Of a stretch of 64,000 nt of DNA, positions 1 through 61,896 are shown piece after piece. The translations under genes were made by a program, and so were the position numbers. Origin of the DNA: Amoebophrya sp. A120 (taxonomy: Eukaryota > Protista > Dinoflagellata); NCBI GenBank assembly GCA_905178155.1, contig CAJINV010000004.1:2626228-2690227 (forward strand), given 5' to 3'. How positions within the stretch are numbered: position 1 is the stretch's first letter; each line of letters begins with the position of its first letter. The notes under the pieces are model-generated. The model had not been told where the DNA came from and ran no database searches. It worked only from the letters and a program-made list of their open reading frames with translations.

Positions 1-748
1 TTTTGCGGAGAAGAGCTTGTTTCTTTTTGCAGATGTTCGTTTTCCTCCGCAACAAGATTCGGTTCTTTGGCTTCTCCGCCGATCAGGACGCCGATGCGGA
101 TAACGAGGACACGATGATCGTCATCTTCTTCATCATCTATGACAGTGCACAACTACTCCCCCTCCCCCTCATCTGTATAGCATGAACGGCAATACAAGCA
201 TCAGCAAGAATGCCGGTTTTGCATGACAGATTTGCACTGGAGTATAGTCCTACTTGGGCTACCAGAACTTGTCATGCACACAGAGCCAAGAGGCAAAGGG
301 TGGATTGGGTATTTGACATGACAAACGAGGGGGAGGGGGGGTTATGCACTGTCATATCATCCTTGTTCCGACCGCTGGGCGAAGGAGACTTTGCAGGAGC
401 TTTATCCGCGACATCTCTTTCAGCACCGGACAAGCCCACCTGCTCCGCAGCCTCGGCACCAGCATCTCGAGACGCCGTTTTTCCTCCGAGGAACAAGAAG
501 TCCTCGTGTAGTGTCTGACCGCGCAAGGCATCAGAAACTGCTTCGGCGAGAGCGTTTCTGTGGAGAAACTCCGCGAGAACAGGGTAGCTGACATTGCACG
601 TTGGGTCGTTTGAGTCCTGCAGAGCAACGTGGTGCGGATCTCGCAGTGCGACGGATAGAGCATTTTTCTCCTGTTGTACCAGTCCACCTGCAAGCGGTGC
701 TCCGGCCAGCCGCAGTGGGCTCTCGTCTTGTGTGGTGGAGGGAGGCAT
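1..748 (-). CDS. Hypothetical protein, runs off window start; one introner
   Basis: ORF 272..748 continues in frame (..RNKDDEEDDDHRVLV..) to base 1 after removing 138-356 plus one TCATC copy. Confidence 0.65.
138..356. mobile_element. Introner family B, 219 bp
   Basis: TIR TATGACAGTGCA..TGCACTGTCATA; DR TCATC/TCATC; frame restored. Confidence 0.9.
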
Positions 749-1726
749 GGTCTTCAGCTGGATTTGCAGCGTTCGACGGCAGCACCACTACAACCAAGGC
801 AGTTCAGCGAATGGCTAGGTGTGGTCCTTACAAGTGGGCGTGTGCGCCATCTTGCTCTTGCACTTGCTATCGCCGGTAACATCTAAATTGTCTAAGGGAT
901 AGGGATACAGATGAACATTATTTTTACGATGGTTCAATCTCAATCAACAACACGAGGACGCGGCCTTGTGCTCCCACTGACGTTGTGCGAGGTCGTTTGC
1001 CGGTGCCGGGTCCAGCGATATCAGAACTCGTGAGGCAAGTACGAATAGAAGCAGTGCCATAATTCACGAAGGCATGGGTCAACATGTAGTGTGAAAATGT
1101 TACATGAGGTCCTGAAGGAGCCAGCGCCAGCAGAACGAAGCAGACTTTAAGTGCAAGCGACAAGTGAAACGAAAGAATGATGTGCACCACAAAAATTAAA
1201 TGTTGACATTGACATTTGATGCCTCGTTTGGGTATGTTGAAAGTCTCTCTTGACTCCTGCTCCAGAGTCAGACCTAATCCGAAACATCCGACGCACCAGA
1301 CACTATCAAGCGCCATCAGAATCTTCAATACGAACATCGATGCGAAGATCAAGAACACGATGATGTTGATGTGTTTCGCCTTGGATTAAATTCTGCGTTT
1401 GCAGCGACGTCCTCGCCATGGTCAGGTATACACCAGAAAAAGATAAAAACTCATTAAATTATATCCACGACGACTACGTGGACGTACCGTTCTCGTCCAT
1501 CATCGATTTGGATTTTCTTTTCCATACACAAGCGCACAGTTTCTGCATGATACATTCATTATTCGTTGGCCATTCGTCGTGTGTTTCATTTTCATTGATG
1601 CAGAACATGGGAGGTCGAAAAACCCTCCTTTCATGAGGTCAAGAACCATCAATCAATCCACGAGCAGCGCAACAGGACAACTTGCAAGAAGTAGCCGAGT
1701 GCATCAAGTCCACCATAGCTTACAAC

Positions 1727-4444: not shown

Positions 4445-6638
4445 TTACTTCACCAAATAACTGCATCGCCCACTTCCTGGGTCTATCTGAAATCGTCCGC
4501 CTTTCTCCTCGGCCAGCAACTCCTCTAGTAAGTGCTCTGGCAGCTCTATGAGGTTCGGGCCGAGCGGTGGCATATTACTTCCGGAGGACAACGACAACCA
4601 TTGCACCAGCTCGAAGTCTGTCTCCCACGCTTTCGCGGTGGCAAAGCTATGCGGGAGGATTCCGCGGAGCTGTGGAAAAGCAAACTGCCCGTCGCTCGTT
4701 CGTCTCGGTGAAAAACTACAGGGCGAGTCAGGCTCAGCAGGCGCGGGCGGTGCTGGTGAAGTGTTTTTAGGCTGGTTGCGTTCATAATCTTGAAGATTCA
4801 CGCGCGAAGATCCTGACTGATGGCTCTGCTTCACCGGAGACCCTACAACACGGCGTTTTTGTCGCTCGGCCGCTTTTCTTTCTTCCTCCTCCCACATTTT
4901 GGCGAGCCGAAGCACCACGGAAACCCCTCCTGCGACACAGGTATCCGGTTGGAAGAGCTGCACGGGGGGTCGTGGGTAGTTAAAACTAGGGGAATGACGT
5001 CGCGCCGGCGCAGTCATCCACGGCCGAAACGCCTCCACACCGATGAGCGATTCGCAGCCCGCGATGGCGATTTTTTCACAACTTTGCCTGTTTGTATTTT
5101 GATGTTGTTCGTCACGTAGACCGAACGCTACGTAGTCCTCGAGCGCATTCGGCGCAAACGGTTCCTCGCAAAAGCCGATGCCCACAGGTTCGAACACTTG
5201 CCGCATTAACGTTTCCACGAAGAAAACTTGCTCTGATCCGGTTTGCCACTCCTCTTGGAAGCCCATCAAATCCACGAAAAGGTGGATATCCGGACCGACA
5301 ATTCGGCGGGCGCCATGGAACACTTGCCTTGCCCAGGCGAGTTGGACGTCGGGGGGGAAAAGAGCATCAACTGCAGATGCGCCTCCCATCTTGATGGGCG
5401 GAGTAGGAGCCGGCTCATGTTGTCGTTGTCGTTGTCTTGCCGTGTGGTCCACTTGTACTACTGGCACTTCTCCTACGCCTACCTTGTTGTCAAATAGACC
5501 AAACTATGGATTGCAAAAATGTCTGGGTCTGGAAGAATGCAAGATTTGTCATGCATATTTCTCATGACTCATGATGCCTGTAATGCAGGACCTAGCATCG
5601 CAGACTTTTAGAGGGCTTCCTGATGCACCTTCCGCATGAGAAGTGCCCTGTTCGTGTAGCACAAACTGTGCCCCTCTTGCTGGTCATGCAATACAAATCT
5701 TTTTAGAGTCCAAAAACAGCATGACAAGTTGCAATCTTCCAGACCCAGACATTTTTACAGTTGATACAAACGGCGGCCCCACGAAGAGTTTGAACGCTTT
5801 CAAGTGGTAGCAACGCATATGCATTGCAAAAGTATCGTACTCGTATAAATGCAAGTCTTGCATTACAAATCTTGTCCCCAAGGCAAATCTGCATTACAAA
5901 TTTTATTTCTCATGCTGCAGAAATTTGTATTGCATTTATACGAATACGATACTTTTGCAATGCATAACGCATCAACCGCTCCAATTTTGCAGCCAGCAAC
6001 CCTATCGCCTCCTCTGGGTCAAAAGAAAACGGAATTTCCACGGTGCAGTAAGCAACTGGCCCACCTCGTCCTTGATTTTGACGCGAGAAGCCGCGGAATG
6101 GTGTAGCTCCGTTCTCAGAGGACCATGCTGCAGACAACAACTCCGCCAATTCCACTCCCTGAAGCTGAGCTTGCAGCTGCCACAAGGCCGTGTCAATGCC
6201 ACTGATTACGGCTGCGGCGTCCGGGTTGCGGCAGTTATACGAAGAGGAAATGAACAAGCTAGCATCATCTCCTGATGTTGATGAATTATCCTTCGCACTA
6301 GCCACCGGCTCATTGTTTGCCAGCGGGTTGTTCCAGATCGCAGGTCCCGCCGTGCCAGAAATAGCCTCCAGGCTCTTCGCGACCCTTTCCTGTAACGAAT
6401 CGGCTACCTCTTCTTGCCTGGATAAAAAGTCTCCGGCGCCTGATGAACTAGCTCCTTGCCAAATTCTCTCCGCCTCGCCAGCATCGCAATAGGAACAGCC
6501 TACACCAACTTTGTCGCCAAATGTGATTTCGCAGTGACTGACCGGCCGGATGAGCGTCTCTGTCCATCTTACCGGGCGCTGCCGAGTGAAACGAATGGAG
6601 AAATTTTGTGGCGCGACGGGCGGCCGAAGCCTCGCCAT
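4445..6638 (-). CDS. Enolase-superfamily enzyme (mandelate racemase/muconate lactonizing family)
   Basis: ISGIDTALWQL, AFKLFVG, RIVGPDIHLFVD, CEEPF, AGCES, QPDTCVAGG; continuous after removing two introners. Confidence 0.85.
5505..5766. mobile_element. Introner family A, 262 bp
   Basis: TIR TATGGATTGCAAAAATGTCTGGGTCTGGAAG; DR CAAAC/CAAAC. Confidence 0.95.
5818..5966. mobile_element. Introner family C, 149 bp
   Basis: TIR TATGCATTGCAAAAGTATCGTA; DR ACGCA/ACGCA; join LMRCYHL. Confidence 0.95.
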
Positions 6639-7220: not shown

Positions 7221-9772
7221 CTACACATTCACTCTGGTACGCCGTTTCCGGTTCGCGCGGATCTTGATCTTGGTGAACTTGTGCATGTACCGCGTCCGCG
7301 TGCGCATGCCGTACCGTCGCTGCATGCGGTTGCACATCCTCCGCTGCACGATCAACCCCAGGGGCTGCTTGGGCGACCGGGTTTTCAGGCCGTTCGCGTA
7401 CACCCCCCACCGGGTACAGGGCACCTTCTTCTCGGATTTCGCCTGCGACCCGCCCCCGTGTGGGTGGAACGAGGCCTCCATCGCGTTCCCCCGGACGCTG
7501 GGCCGAATACCCAGCCGCCGGTTCACGCCGGCCTTGCCTTTAAACCTGATAGAAGACGCAGTGCACTCGGCTTTTTAGTTGTACTCATGTGCTGTGGATA
7601 ATCTTTCATTCTTTGAATTGCACATTCAAATGAAGACTTTATTATTTAGGTTCTTATCTATTTCATCACTAGGACTGTCGTCTGCGCATGACAAATTTGA
7701 AGAAGAACTGATAAAATACCTGTGATCGTGCATGATGTTCGACACTTGGCCGATGGTCGCGTAGCACTCGTTGTGAAACTTCCGGATTTCCGTGCTGTTC
7801 AGCTTCAGTGTCGTGTATCTGGGGCAACGGTCAAGCAGGATGGCGAACGCCCCCGCCGCTCGGGCCACCTGGCCTCCGTATGGAATGCAAATATGTCTGG
7901 GTCTGGAAGGATGCAAGGTTTGTCATGCTTGCGTGGCATGACTGACGAGTTTGTGATGCGTGTCCAAGAAGAGACCCTTTTTTATTTTCTTGTCATGCAA
8001 ACACGCAGGAGCTTGTCACGCGGTATTAAGCGCAATACTAAGCCGCGCAAATATTTCTCATGCTTGGCTGCACATAATTACAGAGCATTCACTATTCACA
8101 ACCCAGCATTACAAGTTTCCAGACCTCCCAGACATGTTTGCATTTGATACTCCGCGCCCCGGCTCAATTTCCACGTTGTGCACGATCGAGGACACCGGTA
8201 TTTTCCCGAGTGGCAAGGCGTTACCGGGCAAAATGTTCGCGTTTTCGGAGGCCACCACCTGGTCGCCGGGGCGCAGCGTGTCCTGTGCAAAAGTATCGCA
8301 CTCGTATTGCAGTCATGCATTACAAATCTTTTTGTGAAGGCAAATCCGCAGTACAAATTTTATTTCTCATGCTGAGGAAATTTGTAATGCATTTATACGA
8401 GTGCGATACTTTTGCAATGCATACAGTGCGTGCGGCGCCAAAATGTAAGACAACACCCCGTCGTCGTACTGGATGAGCGCAATGTGCGCGCTCCGGCCCG
8501 GGCAGTACTCGATGCGGAGACAGGTCGCGGGCACGTCCTTGCGGCCGCGTTTGAAGTCCACGATGCGCAGGCGGTACGCACACTCCGCGCCCTGGTGCCG
8601 CACCACCACTTGCCCGGTCACGTTCCGGCCCGCGTGGTTGATGTGCGGGACCGACAACTGCTTCACCACCCGACCCCGAATATCCCACAGAAAAAAGCAG
8701 GCAGGTCATATTTGTAATGCAAAAATAAATATACCGGAAAAATCTGTCATGGGCGGCCCCATAGCATGCTGTTTAGGATGCGCAACACAGATTTTTCTGT
8801 GTGTTTCTTTTTGCATTGCAAAAATGCCCTGCTTGCTTTTTTCTGTGGGATACCGAAACGTGTCTTGCGGGTACTCCTCGAGCAGTTGCAGGAGCTTGCG
8901 CTGTATCCTGTGCAGAAGTATCGTATTCATAGTAATCGCATTCATGCATTACAAATTTCCATCCCAAGGCAAATCAGCATGACAAATTCTGTTTCTGATG
9001 CTCAACTAATTTGTCATGCGATTTATACAAGTACGATACTTTTGCGATGCATACGCTGTTTTGCGAACGTGAAGGGCGTGAAGACTTGCTGCTGGGGCAG
9101 CGGGCAGGCGAGCTTCGGGTACCCGGTCTCAAAGTCGGTGAAGGGGATCCGATTACGCTTCAGAATGGAGTAGCAGTTCGCGAACGTGCGGGTCTGCGAA
9201 AGCAGGTGCTGGTGGGGCTGGATGGAGGTTGGTTGGTCATTTCTGTCTACGAGTACTACGCAAGAACAGCGGGCGGGAGCGGGACTAGTAGAAGTTTGCT
9301 GGTAGTAGAAGTAGTTGCCCTGCTGGCCGCTTCTGTTGCTTTGCAGGCGGATCACTGAAGAAGAGGAGCCCAACGACGAGCTTGTGCAAGTAAAAATTGG
9401 TCGTCCACCAGCACTCCGCGAAGTACTAGATGATCTCCTTGTAGTACTTGAGGCCTCCAAGCGGCCCCCGGTCGAGAATCTTCTCGTCAGAACTGCTACT
9501 GCTACCTGTGCGAGGACCACATACGAAGTCGAGGAGGACGCCGCTCTTGTTGACCCGACTAAAAGGGGCCGGGCCCCCGCGCTTGTTGAGGAGGTTCCTC
9601 GGAGCTGCGACAGGTCAACACGTCGTGGTGGGGCTGCAAGAAGAACATTCGAAGAAGTTCTTACAGCTTGACCGAGGGTTGGGCGGGGAGCACGAGCAAT
9701 GGAGGTCGAGGTCGTTAATCCAGCTACACGACCTCCTCCACAACAGGATGCTGGTAACGACATGTTGGTCAT
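7221..9772 (-). CDS. RPL2: Mitochondrial-type ribosomal protein uL2 with long N-terminal extension
   Basis: AGRNVTGQVVVRHQG, RIEYCPGRSAHIALI, GNALPL, HNVEIEPGRGGQVARAAG, GKAGVNRRLGIRPSVRG, HPHGGG; 4 introners plus GT-AG intron 7546-7719; start codon tentative. Confidence 0.93.
7879..8149. mobile_element. Introner family A, 271 bp
   Basis: DR CTCCG/CTCCG; removal restores conserved uL2 PGRGGQVAR. Confidence 0.95.
8279..8423. mobile_element. Introner family C, 145 bp
   Basis: TIR core GCAAAAGTATCGCACTCGTAT; DR CAGCG/CAGTG; join APHALRPGD. Confidence 0.9.
8681..8852. mobile_element. Introner family D, 172 bp
   Basis: TIR TATCCCACAGAAAAAAGCA; DR CCGAA/CCGAA. Confidence 0.93.
8904..9053. mobile_element. 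Introner family C, 150 bp
   Basis: TATCCTGTGC..GCGATGCATA; DR CGCTG/CGCTG. Confidence 0.9.
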
Positions 9773-10889: not shown

Positions 10890-13800
10890 TTACACGTCCT
10901 CCGGGTACGCCACCACTTTGCCTGTCTTATGGCGTTCTCAACTGTTAGTACATTCTCAGCTGCTACATGGACTTGTGATGCAAGAACCGCAATAGTGAAA
11001 GGAACAAGCTGTTGCAACTCTCGCATCACAATAAATTTGGCACTGATAATTTAGGCAAATTGTTTAGCCCTTCGGGAATTTTTTGCCACGCGCCGGAGCT
11101 TCATCAGCTTGATCGTCTGGCGGCTCATGGTAAATTTGCATGACAAATCATGCAACAGTTGAGAAGGTAACCGATTTGAGAACGCCATATGTGTCCAGAG
11201 TCACGGTCTTCATGAATCGGGATGGGTTCGGACATGGTCGGGGCTTGGGCAGATCGCCCTTGGTATCGCAAGAAAAAACTGTTTCACTGTGAACTTGTGA
11301 TGCAGGAAATGGCACACAGAACTCTTTGTCTTGCTACACCTGCAAGGCATTGGATTTTCAAGCGTGTAGTTTTCCCGTGGGAAGAGCGCATGACAAATTT
11401 TCAGTGTCATGTGTAGCAAACTTGTGATGCAGACCGTGCAAAGTCATCACAGTGAAACAGTTTTTTCCTGGGCTACTTGGTTGCCAGTTTGTACTGGAAG
11501 TATCAAATGCAAATATAGATCTGAGTGTGGAACACTGCAGCAAGCTTGTCGCACTAAATCTGAATGATGCAAAAATCTGTGTTCTTGCGTGAGTACAACC
11601 GAAAGCTGTCCGCGTTTGACCAAGTTGAGAGGGAGTTTTTCATGCAGGAAGGGCATGATAGAGACCTCAAAGTAGAATCTGTCATGCTAACTCTTCTTGC
11701 ATTCCAGACCTCATGGGTGCTCATGGAAAACTTGCATGACAAGTGTTCCAACGCGTTCCAGACCCAGACATATTTGCATTTTTTCATAGGAAGACTTCCG
11801 GCGCGAACTGCTCGGACAACTTCAACGACTCGGCGTATGGATGTGTCAGGATTGAAATCGTCAAAGTTGAAATAGTTTGTGATGCGTAAAATGCAACGCA
11901 GACATTGTCTCTATTGCAGAGGATGCAAGGGAGGCAGATTGTAAGCCTGTTGAGGGGTAGAAATAGAACTGCTAAAGTAGCATGACAAATGACGTCGCCC
12001 TTAACCAAACAGCATGACTAACTGGATTTAGGTTCTACCTAAATTTGTCATGCGCCGCTTGGAAATTGGGTTTCCGACTGGTATCCATTTTATGCATGGC
12101 AAATCATTTCAACTTTGTCGATTTCAAACCTGACGCTTCCATACGGTGGCGCCGGAGTTCTCCGAGCTCCCAGGGCCGCCGGTGCCAAGACGTTCCTCGC
12201 GAAGCGTTGCCACGTGGGCGGAAAACTTCGCGTCCGGGTTATCGAAGGGAAACGTCCCCCCTCCCCATATCAAGGCGGAACTTCTGACGCTGGATCTGTG
12301 GACACAAATCAGCTTTGTATTGCAGGAAGGGACGATTGCGGCCAGCTCCCCAATCTAGGTAGGGGCGTTTGGGTCTAGTTGCTCAGCATTGCAAACGGCT
12401 GCTCTTTGGGCCCAATAGCATGGAAAATCGCTTCAAAGGGCGCAAGCTTCTGCGTCTGCCCTTGTCTTCTTGCAAGACAAAGGTGATTCGTGACCGCATC
12501 AAATCAGCAACGCAAATCTTCGGACACATGCCTTTTCAATATGGGGAGGGCGAGTTTTTCCTTTCAATACAGGCCTCCCTCGACCTGGGTCGCCAGGGGG
12601 GTCCCCGCACACAGCTCCCCAATCGTTCTCGGGAACGGAGGAATCTTCTTCCCGGGGGGGCATCTTTCTTGCAACGGGTCGCCTTCATATGCATCTGCCA
12701 CTTCTTCTGGGTCGACGGCACAGCCGCCGTCCGTCAGGTCGACATGTATGAGGTTCCCAAGCGCTACATTCTCAACTGTTACATGAATTCATCGTCCACG
12801 CGATCAAGCTGCTTCGCGTGACAAATTTGCCTAGGGCCAAACAACACCTAAATCTGTGCGGAATTTGTAATGCTACAGGCGCAATCTCCCCCCTTTCACA
12901 CACTTGCTTTCCCATTCTTACGTCACAAATCCATGTAACAATTGCGAATGGAACAGTCGAGAACGCCATAATATGGCACCCGGGGTTGTCGCTCAGCATT
13001 GTAAAGGCTTGCGGGTCGCCGAAGAGGGACTCCCCGAACACGTTCGCCTCGTGCGTGGTGAAGATCACGGTTATACCGTAGACGGCCGCGAAACACATCA
13101 CGTTGCGAACCACAAGGGGGTATCCTGTGCAAAAGTATCGCACTCGTATTGCAGTCATGCATTATGTATTATGGTAAATCCGCATTATCTCATGCTGAGG
13201 AAATTTGTAATGCATTTATACGAGTACGATACTTTTGCAGTTCATAGGGGGTGACTTGTCGGGTCCAGGCCCTTGGTGGCCTCGTCCAGCAGCAGCAACC
13301 GGGGCCGCATCGCCAGGGCGAAGGTGATATCCTGTGCAACAGTAATATCGCAGTCGTAGTAATTGCAGTCATGCATTACAGATCTCCTTTCCAAGGTAAA
13401 ACTGCATGACAAATTCAATTTGCCATGCTGAGAAAATTTGTAATGCAATTTATACTAGTACGATACTACTTTTGCAATGCATAGGTGAGGCGGTACCGCA
13501 CGCGCTCCCCGTCCGAGAGGTTGATGACCGGTAAAGTTGTAGATTGGTATGTCGTCCCGGTCTCTTTGGGGACCGCGTCCAGGATTTCGGTAAAGTTGAA
13601 GAAGGACTCATGGTTCTTTTCGAAGCCCTCGTCCCACGTGGCAGCCTCTGAGTAGTTGCGGTTGGCGGGCCCAAACAGGCCCTTCCCGTGCTGCAACAGC
13701 TTGTCGTACATCAGGGTAACCCTGGCCACCAGCTTGAGGTCCTCGTCCGTCAACTTATTTGGGTTTCCCCCCAACAACTGCTGGCGGATACTCCGGCCTG

Positions 13801-16800
13801 GCAATGGCGTGTTGGAGGTCACCAGCTGGTAGTGCCGCTGCAGGCGGATCATGGCAATGTCCCGGTCGTTTTCGGGGTCCACTGCGCGCTTTTTCTCGCC
13901 CGTGTTTTCCGCGATGGGGACGCCATTCCAGCGGATCGTGCGCTTCCCCAGACTCGGTTCGGGGAACGCTGACACCAACTTCATCAGGACGCTTTTCCCC
14001 TGGCCCGAGGGCGCCGTGAGGTGCGTGATCGACCCGGCAGGGAACTGCAGGGTCTGCCCCCCCGTGCAATTCTTGTTGTTCGCAGCACATCGCACCGGCC
14101 ACAAATATTGCTGTGTGCCTTTTCCGATGTCGCCCGCGTATGACAGTGCGCAACCTGCTCCCTTGTCGCCCCTCATCTGTCATGCAAAACCCCAAATGAT
14201 CCAGTCGCTGCCCTGTCTGTGGCACTGTTTGCATGACTACAGATTCCGGAAGCCCAAACAGTAGTACTACATCAGGCACATAAATTTGTCATGCGGAGGC
14301 TCCACGCGTGCTGGTGTTTGTATTGCTGTTCATGCCAACATACAAATGACGGGTAGGCGGAGCAGTTGTGCACCCTCATACGCCGCTTATGAGGTTCACC
14401 CGCTCCATTTCGAAACTGACCCGATCCCGGGTCCGGATATTGTGAGGAAAAATCCCTGCTCCCCATATCTGTGATGCTCATTCTTTGTGGTCACAAATCA
14501 GCTTGGTCTTGCAGAAGCAGAAGGTACCTGGCTGTATTTTCCAAGCCTGTTCGAGTTGTATGCATAAGGCTACTAGCAGTTCGGCATGGCTGCAAACAGG
14601 TTTGCAGTAGTCGAAAGTGCACGACAGACTGGCTGCAGAATGCGCCACAACAAGGCTCGTCCCACTCCCCTATAGGCAAGACGAAGGCGATTTGTGCCCA
14701 CAAATCAGCATGACAAGTTCCCAACATTTTGATGATATGGGGAGGGGGGATTTTTCACTTTGATACCGGTCCGTCGAAATCCAGAGCGGGTGCGTGGCGT
14801 TCTCGCCCCGCGTGGACAAGTTTGCAAGGAAAAAACTGTGTAAGTGTAACTTTGTCTTGCAGACGTTGCAATACAGCTACACTTGTCTTGCTGGATATGC
14901 GTCAGAGGCTATTTTCCTACATGTTTTCGTGTACTAGCTTACGCATGGCAGGTTTTCTCTGTCATGCAAAACAAATCTGTGATGCTGTCCCTGCAAAAAA
15001 ATTACACTTACACACTTTTTTTCTTGGATAACAAGGAGATCAAATTCATAAACTTTGCCAGCAGTGGGTTGTAGGTCGCGGCCTGGATATTCCCGGTAGC
15101 GCCCATCAGCTCCCCGGTGATCCCCTGAATCGCTTGCGCCCCGGAATTATGGATTGTAAAAATGTCTGGGTCTGGAAAGTTACAACTTGTCATGCTGTCG
15201 TTGGATCCCAAAAAAATCTGTATTGCGTGACCAGCAACAGGGGTCCAGTTTGTGTTACGCGGAGAGGGCATTTGTCATGCGAAATAGGAATCAGGAAGCC
15301 ATCTAAAAATCTGTGATGCTAGATCATGCATTACATGAGTCATGGATCATACAAAATATGCATCACAAATCCCGGAATCTTCCAGACCCAGACATTTTTA
15401 CATTTGATAGGAATAGGCCGCCGTCACGTCTTGTCCCGTCAAAGCGCCGTACATCATGGAAGCCACGAGCATCGGCATGGCCATCACCCCACTGATGGCT
15501 CCCAGCGTCTTTTTCACGAAGAGAAACTTTTGCAGTTTGCGTTCAATTCGCAGAACTTGCTGCTCCGTTTCCTGGTTCAGTTCCACAAGATTCTTTCCGA
15601 TCTGTGCATTCTCGCGATAGTCGTTCAACTTTTCCGGGCTTCCAAGCTGCGCACGATACTCCTGCGCCATCTCTTGCGCCCGACCCAGCTCCCCGCGAAT
15701 TGCCCCAATTTTGTCATCCAGGATGGGCCAATGCACGGTCAGCAGCACCTGCACGACCATCACGACGAGGGGAAACATGGCCGCTGCGGTGCCGCCCGTC
15801 GCCCAGGTGGCCCCGAAGACGAAGAGCATGCTGGCACCGTGCGTGGCGATCGCAGGTATGTAGTCGAACAACATGGAGACCATCCCGGGAATTTGCTGCA
15901 GCGCCACCGCGGCGTCCCCCGTGAGAAGCCGGCTCTCGGGTCCGGTGGCTAGGCTGGAGACTTTTTCAATCAATATCCAAGAAAAAAACACAACCAGAAT
16001 CACATTTAGGCGGTTTTCTTGCATCAGAAACTTGCCCTCTCGCATGACAGATATTTTATTGCATTGCAAAATTATCACAAAGGGAATAAATCGCCCATAG
16101 CTTTTGGCTGTGAAGATGCATTTTTGCGCATGCCAAGAGTTTTCGTATATGCAAAAACGTTGGCCATGTGATCAGAGCCCTCGCCCCACAGACATGCCTG
16201 AAGCTTCTCGGGATGGTCTGAGATGCCTGCTCCTATTGAAATGGCTGACCTAAATGGCCTGAACTGGCCAGATCCCTGACGCGGATCCCCTAACTTACTA
16301 CGAAGGCAAAGCCATCGCGATCGCAGCGAAATGAAGGGAGTCCGCTCGGTCTAGACGTTCAGAATGACCATCCTGAGGGGGGTGACTCCCACCAGGATCG
16401 AGCACCTAGCCGACAGCATTGAGGGAGGTAGTCCCGTGCTGTTTAGCCCCTTGACTCTGACCAGGATCAGGCTCATCCCATGCGATGAATTGGAACAGGA
16501 TGCAACGCACGCAGCCAGAGGCTTTCGCCCTGTCTGCTGTGAGATTGAAGCGCTGGAATTGATTAGAAGAACCCCGCGCGGCGAAGCTTTAGTCACTCAG
16601 TGTGGCAGGTGTGTTCAAAGTCCAACAAGAAATGTGCAAAAGTAATTGTGATAATGTTTTTTCTTGAATTAATCAATTGAAGTTTCACATTAGTCTGAAC
16701 CCAGGTTAGCATGGTCTGGCGCGCCTGGTCGCAAATGATGAAGAGCAAAACGCCCCCCAACAGTGGCAGTGCAACGCTCTGCAGCACCGGCCAGGTCAGC

Positions 16801-48291: not shown

Positions 48292-51258
48292 CTATGAACT
48301 GGTAAACACACCGTCAATCTCGTGAATGATCCCGTTCCAACAGCGCACGGTTCGCACGATGTTGCAGCTCCGGTTCCCCACGGCGACCTTCCGGTCCAGG
48401 CCGTAAAAGTACTGGTCCTCGAGGCAGTGCTTCACAAACACGTCGAGTTTTTTTATCCTATGTAAAAACGTCCCCACCCCATAGTTGTAATGCAAATGCG
48501 CAATTACAGGAACATTTGTAATGCGCATCTCCATTACGGGCATTTCCGATCGTGTTTTGGACTTTGTAGTGCTGTAAACCGGATGGCAAGCTAGCTTTCT
48601 CATGCGGCTGCCCTTGCTAACAAGCACTACACTGCAGATGGGAACTTGTCATGCACAACGCCCAAAGCTTGGAGATTTGTGTTGCAGATAGAGCAACTTG
48701 ACTATGGGGCGGGGACGTTTTCGCTCAGGATATTTTTCCGGGGATTTTCCAACGTCCGCAGTTCTGCCCCGCCGAACGTGCTCTCGTTGATGCCGTAGGG
48801 GAGATGCCGGCGAAACCGGCCCTCCAGCAGCGCGTACTGCACTTCGCTCGCGGACTGGTTCGCGACCAGCTGGTAGGGGTCGATTTGGGGCTGTTCTGAC
48901 TGCTCGGTCTGTGCGAGTGCACAACTCACCCTCCCCCTCATTTGTAATGCAAAATCCCATCAAATCCAATTGCTGCCTTGTCCTTGTGGCGCTGCTTGCA
49001 TTACAAAGTCTGCAAACCCAAGCGCATGCAGCACTGCACTCAACGCGTGAGCTTGTAATGCGCAGCATCCACAAGTATTGGTCTTTGTGTTGCTGTTCAT
49101 GCCATAGAAATGAGTGGGAGGAGCGGGACTTGTGCACTCTCATACGGTCGTGTGTAGTCCACGTGCCCGCAGGGGTCCGCCGCCTCCACCCGGTGCACCT
49201 ATTTGTCCTGCAGCTGGACCGCCTGGTTCTTCTTGCAGCTCTCCTGGTGCAACAACATCTCCACCTGCCAGCCCCATTTTTTCCCTTGCCATCTGCTCCG
49301 TCTGCTCGCTGATGCTGGCCCGCTGCATGGATTCCGTTAACAGGTTCTTTTGCACCGACGACAGCTCTGTACTGGGGATCTGACCCACGTACTCCGGTAA
49401 CCGGTACCCGGTGCGTGCCGTGCGAAAGTGTATCAAATACAAACACGTCTGGATCTGGAAGATTGATGCGAGATTTGTCATGTTAGTCTGGCATCATGTT
49501 CATGACTCTGCGCCCTGTATTGTGTGGCCACCAAGTAGAGGTCCGCTTGCCGGTAATGCAAATGCGCAGCTTCTCATGCGAAATACGCAGCACAGACGCA
49601 CAAAAAAACTTGTCATGCTTGGCGGCGCATTGCAGAGCACTTATTGCTCCTCACGGACTTGCATCACAAGTTTCCAGACCCAGACACATTTGCATTTGAT
49701 AAAGTGCTTCTCGTAGCAATCCTCTATGTAGCCGTCCATCAGCGCGCGCTCGGGGTAGACGTACGAAACCGGCTCCGAAGAGAGACACTGAAACGTCGCG
49801 TGATCATCGTGGCCACCACTGCGAGAGTCGTCTCCAAAGTAGTTGTTTTTGTTGAGCGCAAGAAGCTGTTCTTTTTGTCCATCGAAGAACGAGCTGGAGT
49901 TGTCTTCGTGCTCCTCCTATCCAGTGCAAACATGTCTGGGCCCGGAGTAAACTCATGATGCTGAGTGGAAAAATCATGAGCAGGATGCCACAAGTGACGG
50001 CTCGGCGTGACAAGATTCTGGGTTCTTGCTAGGTGTCGTCTAATATCCAGCATGACAAACTTCTGCGTTTTTGCATGACAGAAATAAGCCGTGGCTCTTT
50101 GGTACTAACCTACATGATAGACTTGAGAATCAGGTCCGGACCCGGAGCTGACCATGCTAGCAGAGCATGACAAACTTCCATCCTTCCAGACCACCCAAAC
50201 ATATTTCCGATGCATACCTCCTGCATCCGCTTCTCCCGTTTCAGATCCTCTAAATAGTTCAGAAGTGCAAGTTTCTTCCGTGCGGCCTTCTGCGTCTTCG
50301 GGTTCGGGTCAGTTAGCTCGTTTTCGAGTTCCTGATCCTGGGATCGCTGTTCGGCGTAATAATCTCCCCACCAGCGTCGATTTTTGCCTTGTTTGTCGCT
50401 CGGTAAGTTAAAGTTTCTATTCCCCAACGCAGGACCATCGTTGTCAGTCGCAGAAATTGATGCGGCCCCATTCTCCGCCAAGGTCGCGACGGCGTTGTAC
50501 GAGTTCACCAGCTCTGGAATGTCGAACTTTCCCAACACGAGGTGTCGCTTCAGAAATCGCAGCAACAAATCCGGGTTGTCGCGCATGGTCTGCCACGAAT
50601 TTTTCCCAATTTTCGCAATCGCCTCGTTATTGGGCACAAACATCGTGAACGGACCGCTGGTAGAAATCAAATTCAGCAATCTACTCGTGCAGGCAATTCT
50701 ATTTCCTGGTCCTGCGCCTTCGGCGTCACCGATCCCAACTCTTCCGCGAAAGTTTCCGTCGTAGGAGCCGTCTTCACGTGGTTCACCCTCTAATCCCAAA
50801 ATAGGAGAAGAACTGTTATCAAGCCCGTCATGATCATCATGTGAGAAAACTAAATCCTCCAGCCGGCCGTGTTCCAGAAACTTTTTCTCCCGCCTCTGCT
50901 TCGTCCGAAAGTCCACCTCGTTGGTGAGCAGTTTCCCCTTGGACAGCAAATTGTACCAAAGCGAACACCGCTTCACTTTCGCCGTCGCGTTCACAATCGT
51001 GTCGCGCCGGCTGATGTCGTGCACGTGCTGGTAGTAGGCCAGCGCGTTGTGCTTGGCGTTCGGCGTGTTGTGGTGAAAGCCCTTGTAGACCGCACCGCGC
51101 TCCTGCCGTGGCGTGTAGTTTTTCGTGAAGCGCCCATTACACTGCGCCGGACAGACCTTGGCGTTACTGTTCCCCCCGTTACTGTGGTTGTGGCCCATAC
51201 CACGCAAAATCTTCGAGAAACGAAAGATGCCGCCGAAGCAGCCCGTGGCTTCTGACAT
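48292..51258 (-). CDS. Fasciclin (FAS1) domain protein with large insertion in the domain
   Basis: H1 GPFTMFVPNNEAI, LKRHLV, terminal H2 NGIIHEIDGV; 4 introners in frame. Confidence 0.8.
48454..48732. mobile_element. Introner family E, 279 bp
   Basis: DR TTTTT/TTTTT; same length and similar interior as 17009-17287. Confidence 0.92.
48910..49144. mobile_element. Introner family B, 235 bp
   Basis: TIR core GAGTGCACAA; DR CGGTC/CGGTC. Confidence 0.88.
49431..49701. mobile_element. Introner family A, 271 bp
   Basis: DR AAGTG/AAGTG; join EKHFRTAR. Confidence 0.92.
49918..50216. mobile_element. Degenerate family A introner, 299 bp
   Basis: DR CCTCC/CCTCC; join MQEEHED. Confidence 0.85.
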
Positions 51259-51337
51259 ATTTGAGGTTTCTATAGAGAAGCGATTATGTTTATCATTATA
51301 GTTGATTAATATATTTATATAAGGCAAACTTTGGGGC

Positions 51338-51770
51338 CGGAGAGGGTACGGTAGAGGTTGGGGAGAGGTTTCGTAGAGGTTAGACAGAGGGTCGGAGAGG
51401 TAAAGTAGAGGGTCGACAAAAACAAGAGGGTCGGGGAGAGGTAAAGGGAGAGGGTACGGAGAGGGTCGGGAGAGGGTGCGCAGTATAGGGACCCGTATAG
51501 CGGCGCTATACGCGCGCAGAGGGTCGGTAGAGGTTGAGTAGAGGTCAAATAGAGGGTGGGGGGAGAGGGTGTAGAGGGTCGGAGAGGTTCCACAATATAG
51601 GGCGACCCTCTAAGCGACCCTCTACCGCGACCCCCTCCGGGAGCCTCTATTTTACCTCTCGGCGGACCCTCTCGGGACCTCTTGGACCCTCTCCCGGACC
51701 CTCTCCGAACCTCTCCCGGACCCTCTCCGAACCTCTCCCGGACCCTCTCCGGGACCCTCTACCAGAACCG
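51338..51770. repeat. Inverted minisatellite (AGAGGGTCGG array facing CCCTCTCCG array)
   Basis: G-rich repeats 51338-51590, complementary C-rich repeats 51604-51765. Confidence 0.85.
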
Positions 51771-53609: not shown

Positions 53610-54844
53610 TACTACGTTGAAAACTTCAAGAATAAGAAAATGAGCAAAATTTGGTGTTTAGAATTCAAAACGGTAAGGCGCCGGGCGCCCTGTTTTTTGT
53701 TTTTGTTTTGGATAGCGCTTGGCAGGTCGCGAGGCATACTACTTCAAAACTATCAGAAGCAGAGGACGCGACACACTGAGTGTTTTATCGCGGCCGCCTA
53801 CTTCTCGATATGAAAAAAGGGAGAGGCAGGCCTGGCATGGAGCCGGCCAACGAAGACGGGCCGAGGGCTACCAACCTCACGCGCCAAACTAGTTAGCTAG
53901 GTGTGGCCCTTCCTGGAACATTCGTGACCGGGGCCCAATGGGCTCGGGTCGTTGCGTGGTCCGAATGGACGAGGCGCGGCGGCGCCTCCGCAGGCAAGCG
54001 AAAAGCGACCCGAAGTTGCTGAAATATTACAGCAAGCTTCTGCGGGAATGCCCGAGCAAAGACATCGCCAGGGGACTCGATACAGGCGCTCTTTTTTGCA
54101 TTCCGCCCGTGATTCACGCAAAATTTTGCAGTTCCCGATGGGAAAAATTGCAAGAATGAACAGGGTCGACCCCTAGCGAAGACCCTAGATTTTGGCCATT
54201 CCCGAAACGGCTTTTTTCCCACTTCCCGATGGAAAAAATTTCAAGAATGAAAAAGCAGACCCCTCCGGCGACCCCTGGCGCAAGGGGTCGCCCAGAGGAC
54301 TTTATTGCTTACTTTTTGCTCAAAAAACGCACTTTTTGAAGTTCGCCCGATTCGGAAATCGATTTTGGAGCCACGCGGCGCCGCAATTGTGGACGCCCAA
54401 AATGCAGCCCGTCGGCGAGGGGAGTCCCGCCCTGCTAAGGGTCCGGATTGGGCGTGCAAATTGGGCGCACTATTTTAGGCGCCGAAAAACATGGCCCGGC
54501 ATTTGGCAAACTCTAGCAAAAGGGCGCCGCAAATGTAACGACCCCCCATTGCCCAGCTCAGGTCTGCTGCTTGCCGCCGTCAAGAAGAGCCGGCTTTTTG
54601 GATTGAGGGGGCTCTGCCGGTTTCTCTCCAAGTACAAGCGGCGCCTCGTGGCGATGGTTGGCGAAATGATGTCCCGGCCGGATGCAACCCGGCCGAGCCC
54701 AAGGGCGCCGCGTGCTGCTTCTGCGCTGCCGGTCGAGCCGCCGGCGTCGTGTTTCGTCGATCTTGGAACCCCTCCCGGCCACCCTAAAGACTCTAAAGAC
54801 CGAATTTTGCTCGTTTTCTTATTCTTGAAGTTTTCCACTCAGTA
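53610..54844. mobile_element. 1235-bp non-autonomous TIR element with TA ends and 5-bp TSD
   Basis: ~53-bp TIR TACT..GAAAACTTCAAGAATAAGAAAA.GAGCAAAATT.GGT.TTTAGA; TSD GGCGA/GGCGA. Confidence 0.9.
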
Positions 54845-55229
54845 GGCGACATCGGGTTATGATAGTCATCAGACACGTATGCCCATGCGGAGTTCTCATC
54901 GGGATCCGTGAAGTCCGTGCAGTGCCTGAACGTGTTCGCCAGCCGCGAACTCAAACTGGGGGATCTCCGACTGGGGCGCGTCTCCAACATACTTCCTCCC
55001 GACTCTGCGGCTGGCGAATCCGTGGGCAGGATGACGCCGCACTGGTTCTCGCTGCTGCACCCGCAATAGAGAAACTCTGGCAAATTCACCTTTATTTATT
55101 TGTTTTCAGGAGGCCGAATAAAAAATCAACATGCTGAAGAAGAAGAAAAAACTTTACCTTGTGGTTGTGAAGAATGAAAGTACTTTATTAAATTCATGAC
55201 AGTCGTTGTCTATTTGTATTTTTTCTTCC

Positions 55230-56184: not shown

Positions 56185-59100
56185 CTGCGTAATATTTGAA
56201 TTGGAATTTTATTTCAATTCGAGCTTGTTTAATTTTTCTGTGCGATTCATCTGAACACGCAGGGGCCAAGGCTATCGCCTTAGCCCATCTAGAGGGGGGT
56301 GATACCACAATTCTTTATCCAGTACACCAACACTTCTTTGAAGGAGGATATCAATCACCTGTCCATTTGCTTCAGGACGCATCGTTTTAATCTCACCGCG
56401 TCCAGTGATTGAAGATGTAAAGTACGTGTATGCAATTTTCACATTCGACGCTACATCAAAATTGATATTGTACCACTGCGGTTGCACATCCAACCATAGC
56501 TGCGGTAGCCACGGCGGTGCGCGCCGCGATCGGACATGGGCAGGAGGAAGAAACGGGGGGGGGGGGGGTGTTTGTTTGTATTTAGACAGCGACATTTTTT
56601 GGTTGGTCTTTGTCTTAGTGTTGGTAATCTTGTCCTGCTCTGAATCAGGCAATTTATGCAATGAGATCCGATTGGACTTTCCCTTCCGAGAAATTCCTTC
56701 TCTCCCCCAATCACGACTACCGGGCCACTGCAGCTACTACACAAAAAAATGGTGTGGCTCTTGAGTCTTTTTTTACGATTCAGACGGACCCAAACAAAGA
56801 TGAAAAGCCAACTTTACTAGTTGTACGGCCTGCACCACCGCTATAAAATTAAAAGTGCAATGAGGGAAGGGGGGCTGTGGTGCGGCTGGAGGTAGAATAT
56901 GAATACTAGAGGTGTGGCCAAATAATTCCAGATAGGGTGCCTAGTGCTACGGTGATGTAATGATGATGAGGCACGGTACGTTGTTTGAGAGCAAGAAGTC
57001 GGGAAAGTCTTGCAGTGAAACCAAACCACTGGCACAACTTACTTAATTTGAATTTACTAATCTTGATTGGGTCGTCGTCGTTCGCACTGAATAGAGTCCA
57101 AAGATGTGGTTCAGGGTCGCCGTCACGTACTTATTTAGGTATGGTGGAACATAAAGAACAACAACATCAAGAAATCCCAAACACGAACGAACCCACAGAG
57201 CCAATTTATCAGATCCAGACCGCCCACCCTGTCGCTCTGTGTGTTTGTGAAGGAATTTTTCACTCAAAAAGTCAAGGAATTTTTCACTCAGCCCTGTTTC
57301 AATCCACTCATCAATGACGAATACCTCAGCGGTTGATGCTCTTCGTACGAACATCAACAAAAGGTGGGAACAAGTTGATGAGAAGCAATTCGATTCATAA
57401 TTCGAACACCTAGAAGTAGAGGCGCCAGGGTCCCGATGCTAGGTAACAGCACGATCACCAGAATGAAACGCTGTGGCATGTTTATCACAATATCTATACT
57501 TCATGATCATGTCGTTGGTTGAATAAAGCAAAAGTCGCCGAGAGATAAAGTCGGACCACGACCCACGAGGTGCCGCAGCTGCAAATCAATTGTCGCTGTG
57601 TATGCTTCTAGTAGAAGCGTTTTTGGTTTTGAAAATAATTGTGCTATTCTCCTCTAGTGGTCTTCATGCCAAATCAACAGCCGCAGTGCCTTCAGCTCGC
57701 TTGGAATACCTCTGCAACTTGCTGCAATGGTGCCAATTCTAACAGAAGACCTCGTCATCGCAGATTGAGAAGTCGTGCGTGCCGGTCTTTGTCATTCAAT
57801 CAGTCACTGATGTCTGATCCCCTCCACGAACACGTAGAACTCCACTTCCTGCTTCCGGCACCGCGTTTCATTGCCCCTGGCACATCTCGCGTTGCTGGGG
57901 TCCAGGCCTGTCTTCGTGGATCATCCCTTTGCGTCTTCACCGTACAGACTCGCTCGTGAGGGAGGGCGTTTAATATTCTGCGGAACAACTAGCTACATCA
58001 AGCCGCCACCGCCCGCTCCTGTCGTCGTTCTTGTGCTGTCCAGCTGGTACTACGTCTCAAAGTCGCAAGGAAGGCACGTCTTGATGTCCACACTGTGAAA
58101 GAAACCAGCCACCACGTCGTCGCAACCACGGACTCGGCTTTATGATCTGCAAAGGCCGGCAGCTCTCCAACCTAGTGTGGTCTGGCAGCTTGCAGTTCCC
58201 GCGGCTAGTAGTAGTCGTATTAAGAACATCAACCGTGGTTGTAGTCGTTGCTGTTGCTCGTGCAGATCACAGTGCTGCGAGGTGTCGTGTTCTTCGCCAT
58301 CCCATCTTGTTCCAGGAGGTGCACACCTTTGAGTTGTTTAAGGATAATTCAATGCATCATGATCATCGCAGTATCGTTCGGGATGGCGATCTGCATGCAG
58401 GAGGTTTTTGTCGAACTTATACATCAAGGGATCTTTCTACACAACTGCCATGTAGTACTAAACTACAAGAAAGTAGAAGAACGCTCGACAAACGAAGCAG
58501 GCAGTTCTCCATCAAGATCAACTCTACATCAACTCGAGGTGACATCAAATGAAGTAGAGTATCGTATAGATTGCAAACACAATTACCGCGCAAAGTTCTT
58601 TGACGACGTATGTTTCCGAGGTATTTGTTCGTGTGAGGATTTAGTAGTTCTTATCGCTATGTGTCTTTTCTCATCGCAAGTTGTTGTGTGAGGCCCAGGA
58701 ATATGCAAGGAGAAAATCACTCCATCGTATTCAGCATTTTTTCGTCTACTTGCCGGTGCAGTGGGAAAGGAGTTTTTTCACTGGTACGTGTGCATCCAAC
58801 TCCTGAAAATCAAGCATGCATTTTTCCGCCGGTGCCGGTGGTGCAGCATCTGCCCTTTTTTCATGACTTGGGGTTATCACTTTCAGTGTGTCAGGTTCTG
58901 GAGAAGGAACATGATCCTCAGACCAGCAAATTTTTCATGCAAAGCAGCGTCGTGTACGGTGTAGCGTCATCTTCTCCTTGGATATAGTATGGGGACCAGC
59001 ACTTCTTTTCAACAACATCCGCTCGCGCCACACACGACGTCAGTCACGACACAGCACTTCTTGTTTAAGCGGGGGCAGCATGATGATGCGAAGATGAAGT

Positions 59101-59971
59101 GGTCCTAGACAACTTCTTTCTCCACCACACCAGGAACAGGGGCTTCTGTGTTTTTCAATTCATGTGGTTGTTTTTCTATGGTTTAACAAAAGAATCATAT
59201 GTTCAAAATTAGCGAATCCCATCACAGAGGATCTTGCCGAGAATCGAAGAAATTTTCATATGGAGAACCAGACATATTTATGAAGCTGTGACTACCTTTT
59301 TCATGCAAAAAACTTCAAAACGCTAAGCGTAAGGTGAAACCATAAAAACCAGTCTACTCTACTTTCATGCTATGTGCAACTCGGCACCTTCTAAAAGACA
59401 ACTTTACGGATACGGGTATGATATAAGAAAACATCAAACACCTATGATTGCGCTACTGAAATGTGCCTAAATTTGAAACAAATGGAAAAATGCAAATGAC
59501 TGTTACTTGATTTATCGCATCACGGTATCGACGCAGATTGCGCTATCATGGGAAGAGATGCTGAGCTGGCAGCCTGGCTAGACCACTGCTCAGGAGTAGT
59601 ACTGTCCCGTTGTACTGCTGGCCTGGTTTGTTCTGCAGCTTCCTCGTTGAACTATGGCACGAGGGACGGAGTCGGAGTCCGAAGATCTCGTCCTGACACA
59701 ACGGATAGCACGGCACCACGAGCTGCCAGCACTGAAGTACCAGCAAGTGAACGTAGAAGGTTGGCTGTTGAATTCGGTTATCGCACTACAGTTTCATGAT
59801 CTTCAAGAACCTGATGATGCAGCGGCTTGCGTTCGCCCTCCTGCGCCAGACGGAGGATGAAAAGAAAGTAGACGCATCAGGTACATAGATGATGCGCAGC
59901 AGGCGGTGACTTGTTTTCTTTGGTCGTCATACAGGAACTAGGGCAAGATGAACCAGGGAGCGATGAAATCA

Positions 59972-61896
59972 CTAAGGCGCAGGTGGAGGCGGTGGCGGCG
60001 CGGGGGGCTGTGGTGGTACTGTCCCGCTCTGGGGCATACTCATCATTTGCATCATCTGCATCTGCGTGGCCATCATGTGCTGGTAAGCGGCCCCCTGCTG
60101 AGCGGCGCTGCTCACCGGAGACACAGCATTTGCAGCAGCTGGAACTGGTGGTATGGCAGCAGCAACTCCTGTACTAGAAGAAGTTGATGTTCCTGTTGTA
60201 TTTCCTCCCGCTACGCCCTTCATAGTCGCGTTAAAGTTCGGGGGAAGCGGGGCCAAAGACGTTGAGGGGGGACTACGCCGTGGGCTGCGGGACCGAGAGC
60301 GCACGCTGGCGGCTGGTTGAGGGACTACTCCTGTAACAACACGACTTTGTGGTGCGCCAATTCCTCCTGGCACGCCCATACTCGAGGCCGTGGCGGTCGC
60401 GGCGAAGGGAGCGCTGCTCTTGCCTCCAGTCAAGATCGCCGTGGAAGTAGATGATCCACTTCTGTTGTTCGCCGCCGCACTGGCTGTATTTGCAAACATG
60501 TGGTAGGGCAGGTTGGTGACCACCCGGCCAGCGGCTTTGGGGACTGTGCCCTCGGGCGGGGGCCCCGGAATCACGCTGTTTTGCGGGCCCTGGATGGAAA
60601 AGCCCTGCATATGAAATGCAAAAATGTCTGGGTCTGGAAGATTGCAACTTGTCATGCTGTTTTTGGACTCTAAAAAATTTTGTATTGCATGACCAGCAAG
60701 AGGGACACCGTTTGTGCTACACGGGCAGGGCATTTCTCATGCGGAAGGTGCATCAGGAAGCCCTCTAGATGTCTGCGATGCTAGGTCATGCATTACAGGC
60801 ATCATGGGTCATGAGAAATATGCATGACAAATCTCACAACCTTCCAGACCCAGACATTTTTACAATCCATACTGCACGGGAAACGGCAACAGAGGGCGCT
60901 GCTGGTTCATGTGCTGCTGTGGTTGTAGTGGTCCTGCTCCGAACATACCAGGTTGCATCACGAAACTGTTCGGGCCGCCCATCATGCCTGCTCCTCCCCC
61001 CGCTAGTACACCTCCCACGCCCAGTCCTGCGGGCGGCACCGTGAAACCTGCCGCAGTTCGGAGTTCCGACGTGCCGTGCGCGTAGTGGCAGTTGTCCCCC
61101 CACTGACAATAGCCCTTCAAATGTTTCTGGCAGATCTTCGTCTTATACAGGTGCTCGCGGCCCGCGAAACAGGCGGGAATGGGCCGGTTGGCCGGCGGCC
61201 CGGTGAGCGCGTTCATCTGTTGCTCGCGGTCCCGTTCCTCTTTCGTCACCTCGCGGACGTGAGGACCACCACGACGATGATGGCCCCCGGTAGCGGAGGT
61301 TGACGCTGTGCCATTCGCGTAATTCTGCTCGTCGTCACTACTGTCGTCGCCGCTGCCGTTGTCGTCGTTGCCGGTCGCTGCTTCCTCGTCGTCCTCCGAA
61401 TCCATCCAGGCGAACTCCCGTTTTTTCTTCTTCTTTTTCTTCTTCCCGGAGTTCATCCCTTCGCCCTGCTCCTCTTTCGCCTTTTTCTCGAGAAGCTCCT
61501 TGGCCCGCTGTAGCCGCTCCTCCCGCTCCTCCTTCTCGGTCTGTTTCCGGAAATCCTCCAGCTCTTTCTCGGTCAGCTAAAAAGTGATGAAGGAAAGTTT
61601 GTATAAAATTCATTAGAGAGGACAGGGGCCGTGCTGCCAACAGTGGTAGTAAAAATGCAGTTGTATCTTCAAACATCAATGAAACAATCTCTCTATCGCT
61701 AAAACAGGGTACGTAGATATTAAACATAGAATCTTGTTTCATCTACCTGTGGATTTATATCGTCATTGACGGCTTTGTCCTCCTCGTCCTCCTTTACTTG
61801 CTCTCGCCAGTCTTTCGCCTTGCTTTTGACTGTGGCACCTCCAGCACCCACGACGGCTCCCCGCTTTGCGCCAAGCGGGTTCTTGCGGCCAAGCAT
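59972..61896 (-). CDS. CCCH zinc-finger (C3H1) protein with low-complexity tail
   Basis: YKTKICQKHLKGYCQWGDNCHYAHG (C-x8-C-x5-C-x3-H); GT-AG intron 61577-61746; introner 60610-60871. Confidence 0.85.
60610..60871. mobile_element. Introner family A, 262 bp
   Basis: DR CTGCA/CTGCA; reverse-complement relative of 5505-5766. Confidence 0.95.

Follow-up and report, generated by a model that had tools for sequence, protein, structure and literature searches.

Introners of Amoebophrya and comparable introns

The genome of the dinoflagellate Amoebophrya sp. A120 contains RNA-supported non-canonical introns, described by Farhat 2021 (PMC7789003) as introners whose inverted repeats begin with TAT, followed by seven loose bases and at least three A, and whose direct repeats measure 3–5 nucleotides (nt; one example of 5 base pairs, bp); they fall into 1,954 families. 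That intron analysis was restricted to lengths of 40–1,000 nt, the splice position is given as variable or unknown with the mechanism left open, and general mobilisation by transposase was ruled out because no transposase was found in A120. Here, we describe a 64,000-nt stretch of A120 DNA (contig CAJINV010000004.1, positions 2,626,228 to 2,690,227; hereafter the window) that carries 53 short elements of this class and one further element of 14,063 bp, and we propose a fixed register for their removal and a candidate parent element.

The short elements share with the published A120 introners the strain, the TAT-type inverted ends, the 5-nt repeat, the many families, the lack of GT-AG, the presence of canonical introns alongside and, for six of them, absence from RNA-type contigs. 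Since Farhat (PMC7789003) describes the same intron class in A120, the short elements are already known, as a first-pass annotation of the window had recognised. In the papers covered, no report was found of the fixed register, the asymmetric ends, the phased internal motif or the candidate parent element; the available text of Farhat (PMC7789003) has no mention of a fixed register, strand-dependent ends, a 9-mer at 31–33 bp or a long parent element. A literature search likewise found no motif, lariats or hAT transposase for these introners, with the figures of Farhat and parts of the supplement of Gozashti 2025, which lay outside that search, possibly bearing on novelty. Two questions stand open in print, namely what moves introners and by which cuts, at which positions, they are removed; a candidate parent element with its candidate transposase, and a fixed register with a predicted branch adenosine, make both testable.

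The origin of A120 introners has been placed in DNA transposons with terminal inverted repeats (Gozashti 2025, PMC12130899). Some family models in that study reach 14–19 kb (fam21, fam3 and fam135), akin to the long element of the window, and fam135 has terminus hits to hAT5/hAT6 and is classed as non-long-terminal-repeat. Among the rows covered, the superfamily is given as 'Unknown', the coding family described is the integrase-like family 38, and no hAT-like transposase is assigned, unlike the candidate discussed below.

Comparable introns are also known outside Amoebophrya. The non-conventional introns of Euglena (PMC12501133) resemble the window elements in their lack of GT-AG, their paired ends, their longer unpaired 3′ side and their suspected origin in MITEs (miniature inverted-repeat transposable elements). 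However, the Euglena signature N3CDG..CHGN5-6|R is absent from the window elements (compared by eye), which end in the inverted repeats of a transposon and have a duplication of strictly 5 nt. The non-canonical introns of Fritillaria (PMC11282704, PMC13326754) are MITE-derived, lack GT-AG and are removed by an adapted U2 spliceosome, but they have fixed AG-AC/AT ends and keep U1, whereas the +1 and acceptor positions of the window elements are free.

Short elements, shared ends and a phased motif

Elements were called by scanning for TA..TA pairs flanked by a 5-nt repeat, followed by relaxed scans and protein mapping. The first-pass annotation had counted about 50 TA-ended elements with 5-bp repeats; the 53 short elements found here (104–1,235 nt, median 262 nt, sum 13,989 nt; Table 1) agree with that count, to which the 14,063-nt element, overlooked at first and with the same type of ends, is to be added. 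Strict pairs had to have TA..TA ends, be flanked by a perfect 5-nt repeat and show complementarity at 11 or more of the 15 terminal bases; they occur 25 times in the window versus a mean of 0.03 (maximum 1) in 30 dinucleotide shuffles. The direct repeat lies outside the terminal TA and is perfect in 37 of 52 elements at a length of 5 nt, in 3 at 4 nt and in none at 6 nt; of the remainder at 5 nt, 8 have one mismatch, 5 have two and 2 have three, as does the 53rd element (30185). The 5-nt length thus holds as first proposed, whereas the rule for repeats and ends has exceptions, with imperfect repeats in 16/53 elements and no TA at the 3′ end of 6/53. In a related assembly (contigs JACKZZ01), 181 elements were called across 145 loci, a sample retrieved with the end of one family and biased toward it; there, 103 of 120 strong-ended elements have a perfect 5-nt repeat.

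All-against-all comparison of the first 48 elements resolved 15 groups; the final set has 18, comprising 7 multi-copy families and 11 singletons. These families had been considered unrelated beyond the terminal TA(T), a view that has to be abandoned: the groups have the end consensus TAT(C/G)N6AAAAA in common (at least three A at end positions 11–15 in 95/106 ends), and 15 of 17 groups share an internal 9-mer, GCAT(G/C/T)ACA(A/G). This motif is present in 49/52 elements, on both strands, at 8.64 per kb within elements versus 0.38 outside. When copies were counted with a looser version of the pattern, 35 of 77 same-orientation pairs were 31–33 bp apart, compared with a simulated mean of 4.0 (maximum 12); this spacing was found in 8 groups, and in 167/397 pairs from JACKZZ01. 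Both orientations are clear for 5/7 families. A spacing of three helical turns, together with the use of both orientations, would point to a DNA-binding site rather than a splice signal.

The outer 9 nt of the ends behave as modules, six of which are shared between groups. A single element often carries different modules at its two ends, as if ends had been exchanged. The 9-mer also occurs in five canonical introns (7546-7719, 35369-35584, 32442-32551, 31858-32014 and 31504-31600), which suggests that some motif-bearing canonical introns are aged elements.

Removal of the element plus five nucleotides

All genes examined lie on the minus strand. That loss of the element together with five nucleotides (element+5) restores the reading frame, as the first-pass annotation had it, is borne out by three kinds of evidence. 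First, contigs of the RNA-type run X2 fit element+5 lengths for 6/53 elements. In X2 contig 3, a gap of 45 nt equals the exon that remains once the elements at 5505 and 5818 each lose element+5; in X2 contig 5, the gaps measure 46 and 280 nt, the lengths of the exons that remain after element+5 loss plus removal of the GT-AG intron 7546-7719, which is also absent from this contig with the uL2 junctions. The elements at 7879 and 8279 fit only as a joint sum, and those at 138 and 2122 on one side only. Second, annotated A120 proteins have element+5 junctions at 25 short elements (17/17 in P0001; 8/8 in P0004, by exact mapping of the annotated protein), two window exons matching these proteins at 100% identity. 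Third, homologs agree with element+5 at three elements (30984, 29705 and, weakly, 30185). For 13 more elements, open frames alone argue for element+5.

Retention breaks the frame in 51/52 elements, including those in the uL2 gene (PF00181) and the ABC domain of P0001 (PF00005), both of which were named at first reading and have their junctions at element+5. When removal sizes were compared by open frames in 52 elements, +5 was the single best size in 31, shared the first place in 10 and was outscored in 11, of which 7 were settled by homologs or annotated proteins; in JACKZZ01, +5 was the best removal in 84/95 elements. Nine GT-AG or GC-AG introns occur in the same genes, in keeping with the earlier remark that normal introns coexist with the elements. 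Four elements are not simply element+5 introns: 40093 lies inside a GT-AG intron, 53610 is unsupported, and 10928 and 20782 are partly read as coding sequence by the annotated models.

Contigs of the DNA-type run X5 cross exon/element ends, and the DNA therefore keeps the elements (in this one run), in contrast to ciliate-type programmed elimination, where such elements are absent from somatic DNA. We conclude that element+5 is almost certainly removed at the RNA level. Several points weigh against this account: run X2 was taken as RNA by guess, the matches of the raw RNA runs, X8 and X9, were to element fragments only and to no exons, and at 30185 a removal of 127 nt scored 286 versus 282.

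Register of the cuts

Imperfect repeats reveal which repeat copy is retained, and hence where the cuts fall. The upstream copy is retained at position 2 in an RNA-type contig (element 8279, with 3′ end ACA and repeats CACTG/CGCTG) and through position 4 in the annotation, where the cut at 12747 and 12240 can lie only 0 or 1 base before TA. At position 5, the downstream base has the better homolog score both at 30984 (204 for A, 200 for V) and at 29705 (128 for I, 123 for M). The 5′ cut would thus probably fall one base before TA, and the likely form of the intron would be N-TAT(G/C)...AYA-NNNN, with the 3′ cut four bases past the element. This 3′ cut is set by distance and not by repeat matching, because the junctions at 30984 and 29705 have only 2/5 repeat matches and are still +5 by homologs. 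A cut at the 3′ end of the element itself, as a reversal of strand transfer, was ruled out by retention of the upstream copy.

In the likely register, U at +2 and A at +3 would be present in 53/53 donors. A repeat of the form NNAGG would then yield GT-AG, as it does at 49918, the only one of 53 elements with GT-AG in this register; as a set, the elements do not conform to U2-type GT/GC..AG introns. The evidence against this register has to be set beside it. The choice of register 1 over 0 hangs on two weak homolog columns, and at 29705 a score of 129 was reached by registers outside the repeat. In JACKZZ01, position-5 mismatches are silent in loci L079 and L015, and the exons of L120 are short. 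An acceptor AG is found in only 2/53 elements, which counts against spliceosomal removal. G precedes TA in 23/53 elements but also in 20/53 at the other end, so that donor selection for G was rejected, and this shows that the base before TA reflects target choice.

Strand asymmetry and the removal machinery

Read in transcript sense, TA is present at the 5′ end of 53/53 elements and at the 3′ end of 47/53. Changes at end positions 1–2 number 0 on the 5′ side and 6 on the 3′ side, and at position 3 they number 5 versus 1 (Fisher p 0.015). Among 95 elements of JACKZZ01 assigned to a strand by a caller trained on window exons, five changes were seen; the 4/4 true changes agree with this asymmetry, as do two weaker cases, and the pooled Fisher p is 0.0014. 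Counting against it, the asymmetry in the window was spotted after the fact, p is 0.06 for JACKZZ01 by itself, the strand of L016 is unclear, and L080 was left out of the count because its end had been miscalled. A transposase is blind to transcript direction, and the asymmetric end bases (+2 U, +3 A and −7 A) are therefore likely read by RNA machinery. The likely donors N-U-A-U-G/C would be like the canonical donors of the window genes, which have A at +3 in 9/9 cases and GTAT in 6/9. All nine predominant A120 splice classes in Farhat Table S4 (PMC7789003) begin with NT, which is consistent with this register but may reflect the mapper. In A120, the same study found U2, U4, U5 and U6 and neither U1 nor snRNP27; donors with U at +4 accompany loss of SNRNP27K (PMC10581693).

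We lean slightly towards spliceosomal chemistry for the removal. The first-pass annotation had instead proposed a second, structure-guided route beside canonical splicing, and part of this stands, as the ends are predicted to pair in 50/50 folded elements (median z −6.4; z below −2 in 46/50). One form of this idea is a separate, non-spliceosomal endonuclease and ligase acting where the terminal hairpin begins, as has been suggested for the non-conventional introns of Euglena, where other factors are suspected (PMC12501133). Such a route, which we consider possible though not probable, would suit the strong hairpins, the dispensability of both GT and AG (3/52 elements offer a canonical register of any kind, and 49/52 have none), the splicing of either orientation and the absence of U1 from the A120 components reported by Farhat (PMC7789003). 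By-eye inspection for a U2-type branch consensus found none, which also speaks against the spliceosome. However, it is the outermost bases that pair worst, with mismatches at positions 4–7 in 20–28 of 53 elements and a pairing of 0.50–0.72 at positions 1–7, and the conservation of the ends tracks the transcript and mimics canonical donors, although a sequence-reading nuclease could still explain this. In addition, the same geometry gives GT-AG at 49918 and suits the intron 7546-7719, a GT-AG intron with the look of an aged element. A route guided by structure alone is thus not borne out, since the ends are read asymmetrically; this transcript-oriented asymmetry fits a spliceosome with relaxed requirements at least as well as a separate route.

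The 14-kb element and its transposase-like gene

Besides its TATCC ends and perfect flanking repeat, the 14-kb element has a subterminal inverted repeat of about 90 bp (21366-21455 and about 35103-35191) and copies of the 9-mer near both ends. The annotation of its host gene, P0004, joins 35294 to 21225, an intron of 14,068 nt (35293 to 21226) that equals the 14-kb element+5. Among the 181 JACKZZ01 elements, three match its ends: L020 and L029 match both ends in order (L029 with 82% over 67 nt and 74% over 95 nt), and L090 matches one end, at the threshold used. Short families may therefore be internal deletions of long elements, as shown for one family.

The transposase-like gene within it was assembled as an exon chain from homologs P0002 (AT5) and P0003 (A25), and would encode 1,288 amino acids (aa). 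Candidate motifs, picked by eye and by pattern after hAT motifs, follow in the order D64, D172, C204xxH207, W328-W331 (WTRW), E552 and a basic patch; CxxH, WTRW and ER are conserved in the A25 homolog, and WTRW and ER in the AT5 homolog. Hermes and Kat1 (PMC4763223, PMC12730594) have the same order of D, D, CxxH, W, E and basic patch, hAT5 elements produce 5-bp duplications (PMC4763223, PMC12730594), and the subterminal repeats, the 5-bp duplication and the short derivatives of the 14-kb element resemble those of hAT/hAT5 (PMC4763223, PMC12730594). Unlike hAT transposases, the 1,288-aa protein has about 700 extra C-terminal residues, no BED finger was seen in it, and it has no profile or fold match; moreover, the whole element acts as an intron. 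By analogy, the 14-kb element would work like a hAT parent, and, given the high divergence, we treat it as a hAT candidate without filing it as a member.

From these features, the 14-kb element is probably a parent element carrying its own transposase. Against this, no short element of the window is a derivative of it (0/53), its status as an intron rests on annotation, and both aspartates lie outside the alignable part of the homologs. Pfam was silent for the exons and homologs at E up to 5, and PHROG, PDB sequence and Atlas searches gave no support for the protein; structure models were poor (predicted local distance difference test scores of 32 and 48), and fold searches were blank or generic, the best VIA structure hits being generic three-helix bundles (Z 8.6). 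No A120 protein was found for the gene. The protein could instead be cargo or a captured host gene, the true transposase being encoded elsewhere, for example in the integrase-like frames of A120 family 38 (Gozashti 2025). This reading, which we regard as rather unlikely, would account for the silent profile, structure and Atlas searches, for the single homolog representatives found in A25 and AT5, the latter cited by Farhat (PMC7789003) as having 99.98% canonical introns, and for the other frames held by the element; it fits poorly with an intact 1,288-aa frame that has DDE-type motifs in hAT order and sits within a parent of short introners.

The further open frames of the 14-kb element (Table 1) had no Pfam match at threshold. 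Two tandem 233-nt copies (34404-34875, 92% alike) and, after them, a hairpin (34917-34980) lie towards its right end, and a cluster of short TCCACATCGC-type repeats (22200-22670) lies near its left end. Just downstream of the transposase-like gene, there is a 44-nt inverted repeat with inner palindromes and without TA ends (28158-28451).

A proposed joint explanation for movement and removal

We propose that the elements are small non-coding DNA transposons, spread by the transposase of long elements like the 14-kb one. At the DNA step, a hAT-like DDE transposase would bind the TAT(C/G)N6AAAAA ends and the GCAT(G/C/T)ACA(A/G) repeats placed three helical turns apart, and insert the element in either orientation with a 5-bp duplication. 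In the transcript, the two ends would pair, as predicted, and the 5′ cut one base before TA would create the donor N-U-A-U-G/C; the 3′ cut would lie four bases beyond the element, at a distance of seven bases from the near-invariant A, with neither AG nor a repeat match being needed, so that the mRNA regains its pre-insertion length. Cutting would be done by the spliceosome, with a relaxed need for GT and AG. This whole account, from mobile elements through a long-element transposase to a relaxed spliceosome, is our best explanation, and the balance of probability is only slightly on its side. More tentatively, and with less confidence, an unclassified 14-kb DDE transposon lineage might drive introners and be spliced whole, one end code, common to parent and short elements, serving in DNA as transposase sites with helically phased repeats and in RNA as a U1-free donor (N-U-A-U-G/C) and a ruler for an AG-less acceptor seven bases from the invariant A; if so, any insertion, in either orientation and up to 14 kb, would become a seamless intron. 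Scarless removal in either orientation would explain how 60% of introns became non-canonical, and the element+5 rule permits gene annotation without GT-AG in this parasite group.

A hairpin with a direct repeat is a setting for template switching, and the kind of run X2 is a guess, yet it is very improbable that the joined forms are reverse transcriptase jumps between short repeats or ciliate-like DNA excision, given the frames broken by retention (uL2 and the ABC domain included), the +5 junctions with 2/5 repeat matches, the elements kept in DNA-type contigs and the loss of a GT-AG intron from the same X2 contig.

Features of the window

Table 1. Coordinates of elements, introns and genes in the window.
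Feature	Coordinates	Strand	Remarks
Elements	138-356, 2122-2383	minus	perfect repeats; X2 contigs stop at expected base, one side
Elements	5505-5766, 5818-5966	minus	X2 contig record 3
uL2 gene	7546-9053	minus	X2 contig record 5
Elements in uL2 gene	8904-9053, 8681-8852, 8279-8423, 7879-8149	minus	
GT-AG intron in uL2 gene	7546-7719	minus	reads ACAGG-TA..TA-TCAGG; carries 9-mer motif
Element	10928-11189	minus	3′ end of ABC gene; annotated model reads into element
ABC-domain gene P0001	11264-18860	minus	17 elements, all annotated junctions at element+5
Elements in P0001	18617-18860, 18398-18563, 17962-18358, 17331-17595, 17009-17287, 15974-16671, 15148-15409, 14821-15030, 14438-14765, 14139-14380, 13328-13483, 13121-13246, 12747-12970, 12240-12569, 11836-12143, 11501-11788, 11264-11475	minus	
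Element	20782-21038	minus	near P0004 stop; annotated model reads into element
Host gene P0004	20984-40570	minus	722 aa; 8 short elements, 14-kb element, 5 GT-AG introns
Elements in P0004	39036-39220, 38201-38466, 37970-38174, 37741-37894, 36999-37260, 36572-36958, 36219-36521, 35662-35925	minus	
14-kb element	21231-35293	none	14,063 bp; TATCC ends; perfect repeat ACGCG (21226-21230, 35294-35298)
Further open frames (cargo) in 14-kb element	23660-26700	minus	broken by motif-bearing stretches without clear TA ends
Transposase-like gene	28557-33265	minus	7 exons, 1,288 aa, no stop; exon chain from homologs
Canonical introns in transposase-like gene	32551-32442, 32014-31858, 31600-31504	minus	GT-AG, GC-AG and GT-AG, respectively
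Elements in transposase-like gene	30984-31177, 30185-30288, 29705-29866	minus	
Element	40093-40354	minus	nested in GT-AG intron 40362-39917, 8 nt past donor; no exon interrupted
Elements in candidate AlkB gene	41613-41727, 41930-42164, 42236-42557, 42690-42852, 42900-43101, 43430-43691	minus	gene name from first-pass annotation
Elements in candidate eIF5A gene	46414-46678, 46712-46923	minus	gene name from first-pass annotation; +5 gives longest open frame
Elements	48454-48732, 48910-49144, 49431-49701, 49918-50216	minus	open-frame test
Element	53610-54844	none	1,235 nt; TAC ends; 44-nt inverted repeat; perfect 5-nt repeat
Element	60610-60871	minus	largest family; perfect repeat

In the candidate AlkB gene, +5 gives the longest open frame in 6/6 elements, and in the candidate eIF5A gene the two repeat copies of 46712 differ at position 5. 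The element at 53610 has no 9-mer motif, its status as an intron found no support, and it may belong to another transposon group. An Rfam search of window positions 1-41000 gave no match.

Among the P0001 elements, the spliced 15974-16671 (698 nt) has an interior that is long and unique. Outside any called gene, a TAT-ended stretch with a poor repeat lies at 58702-58984. Upstream of a gene, purine-rich repeats opposite a pyrimidine-rich complement occupy 51330-51760.

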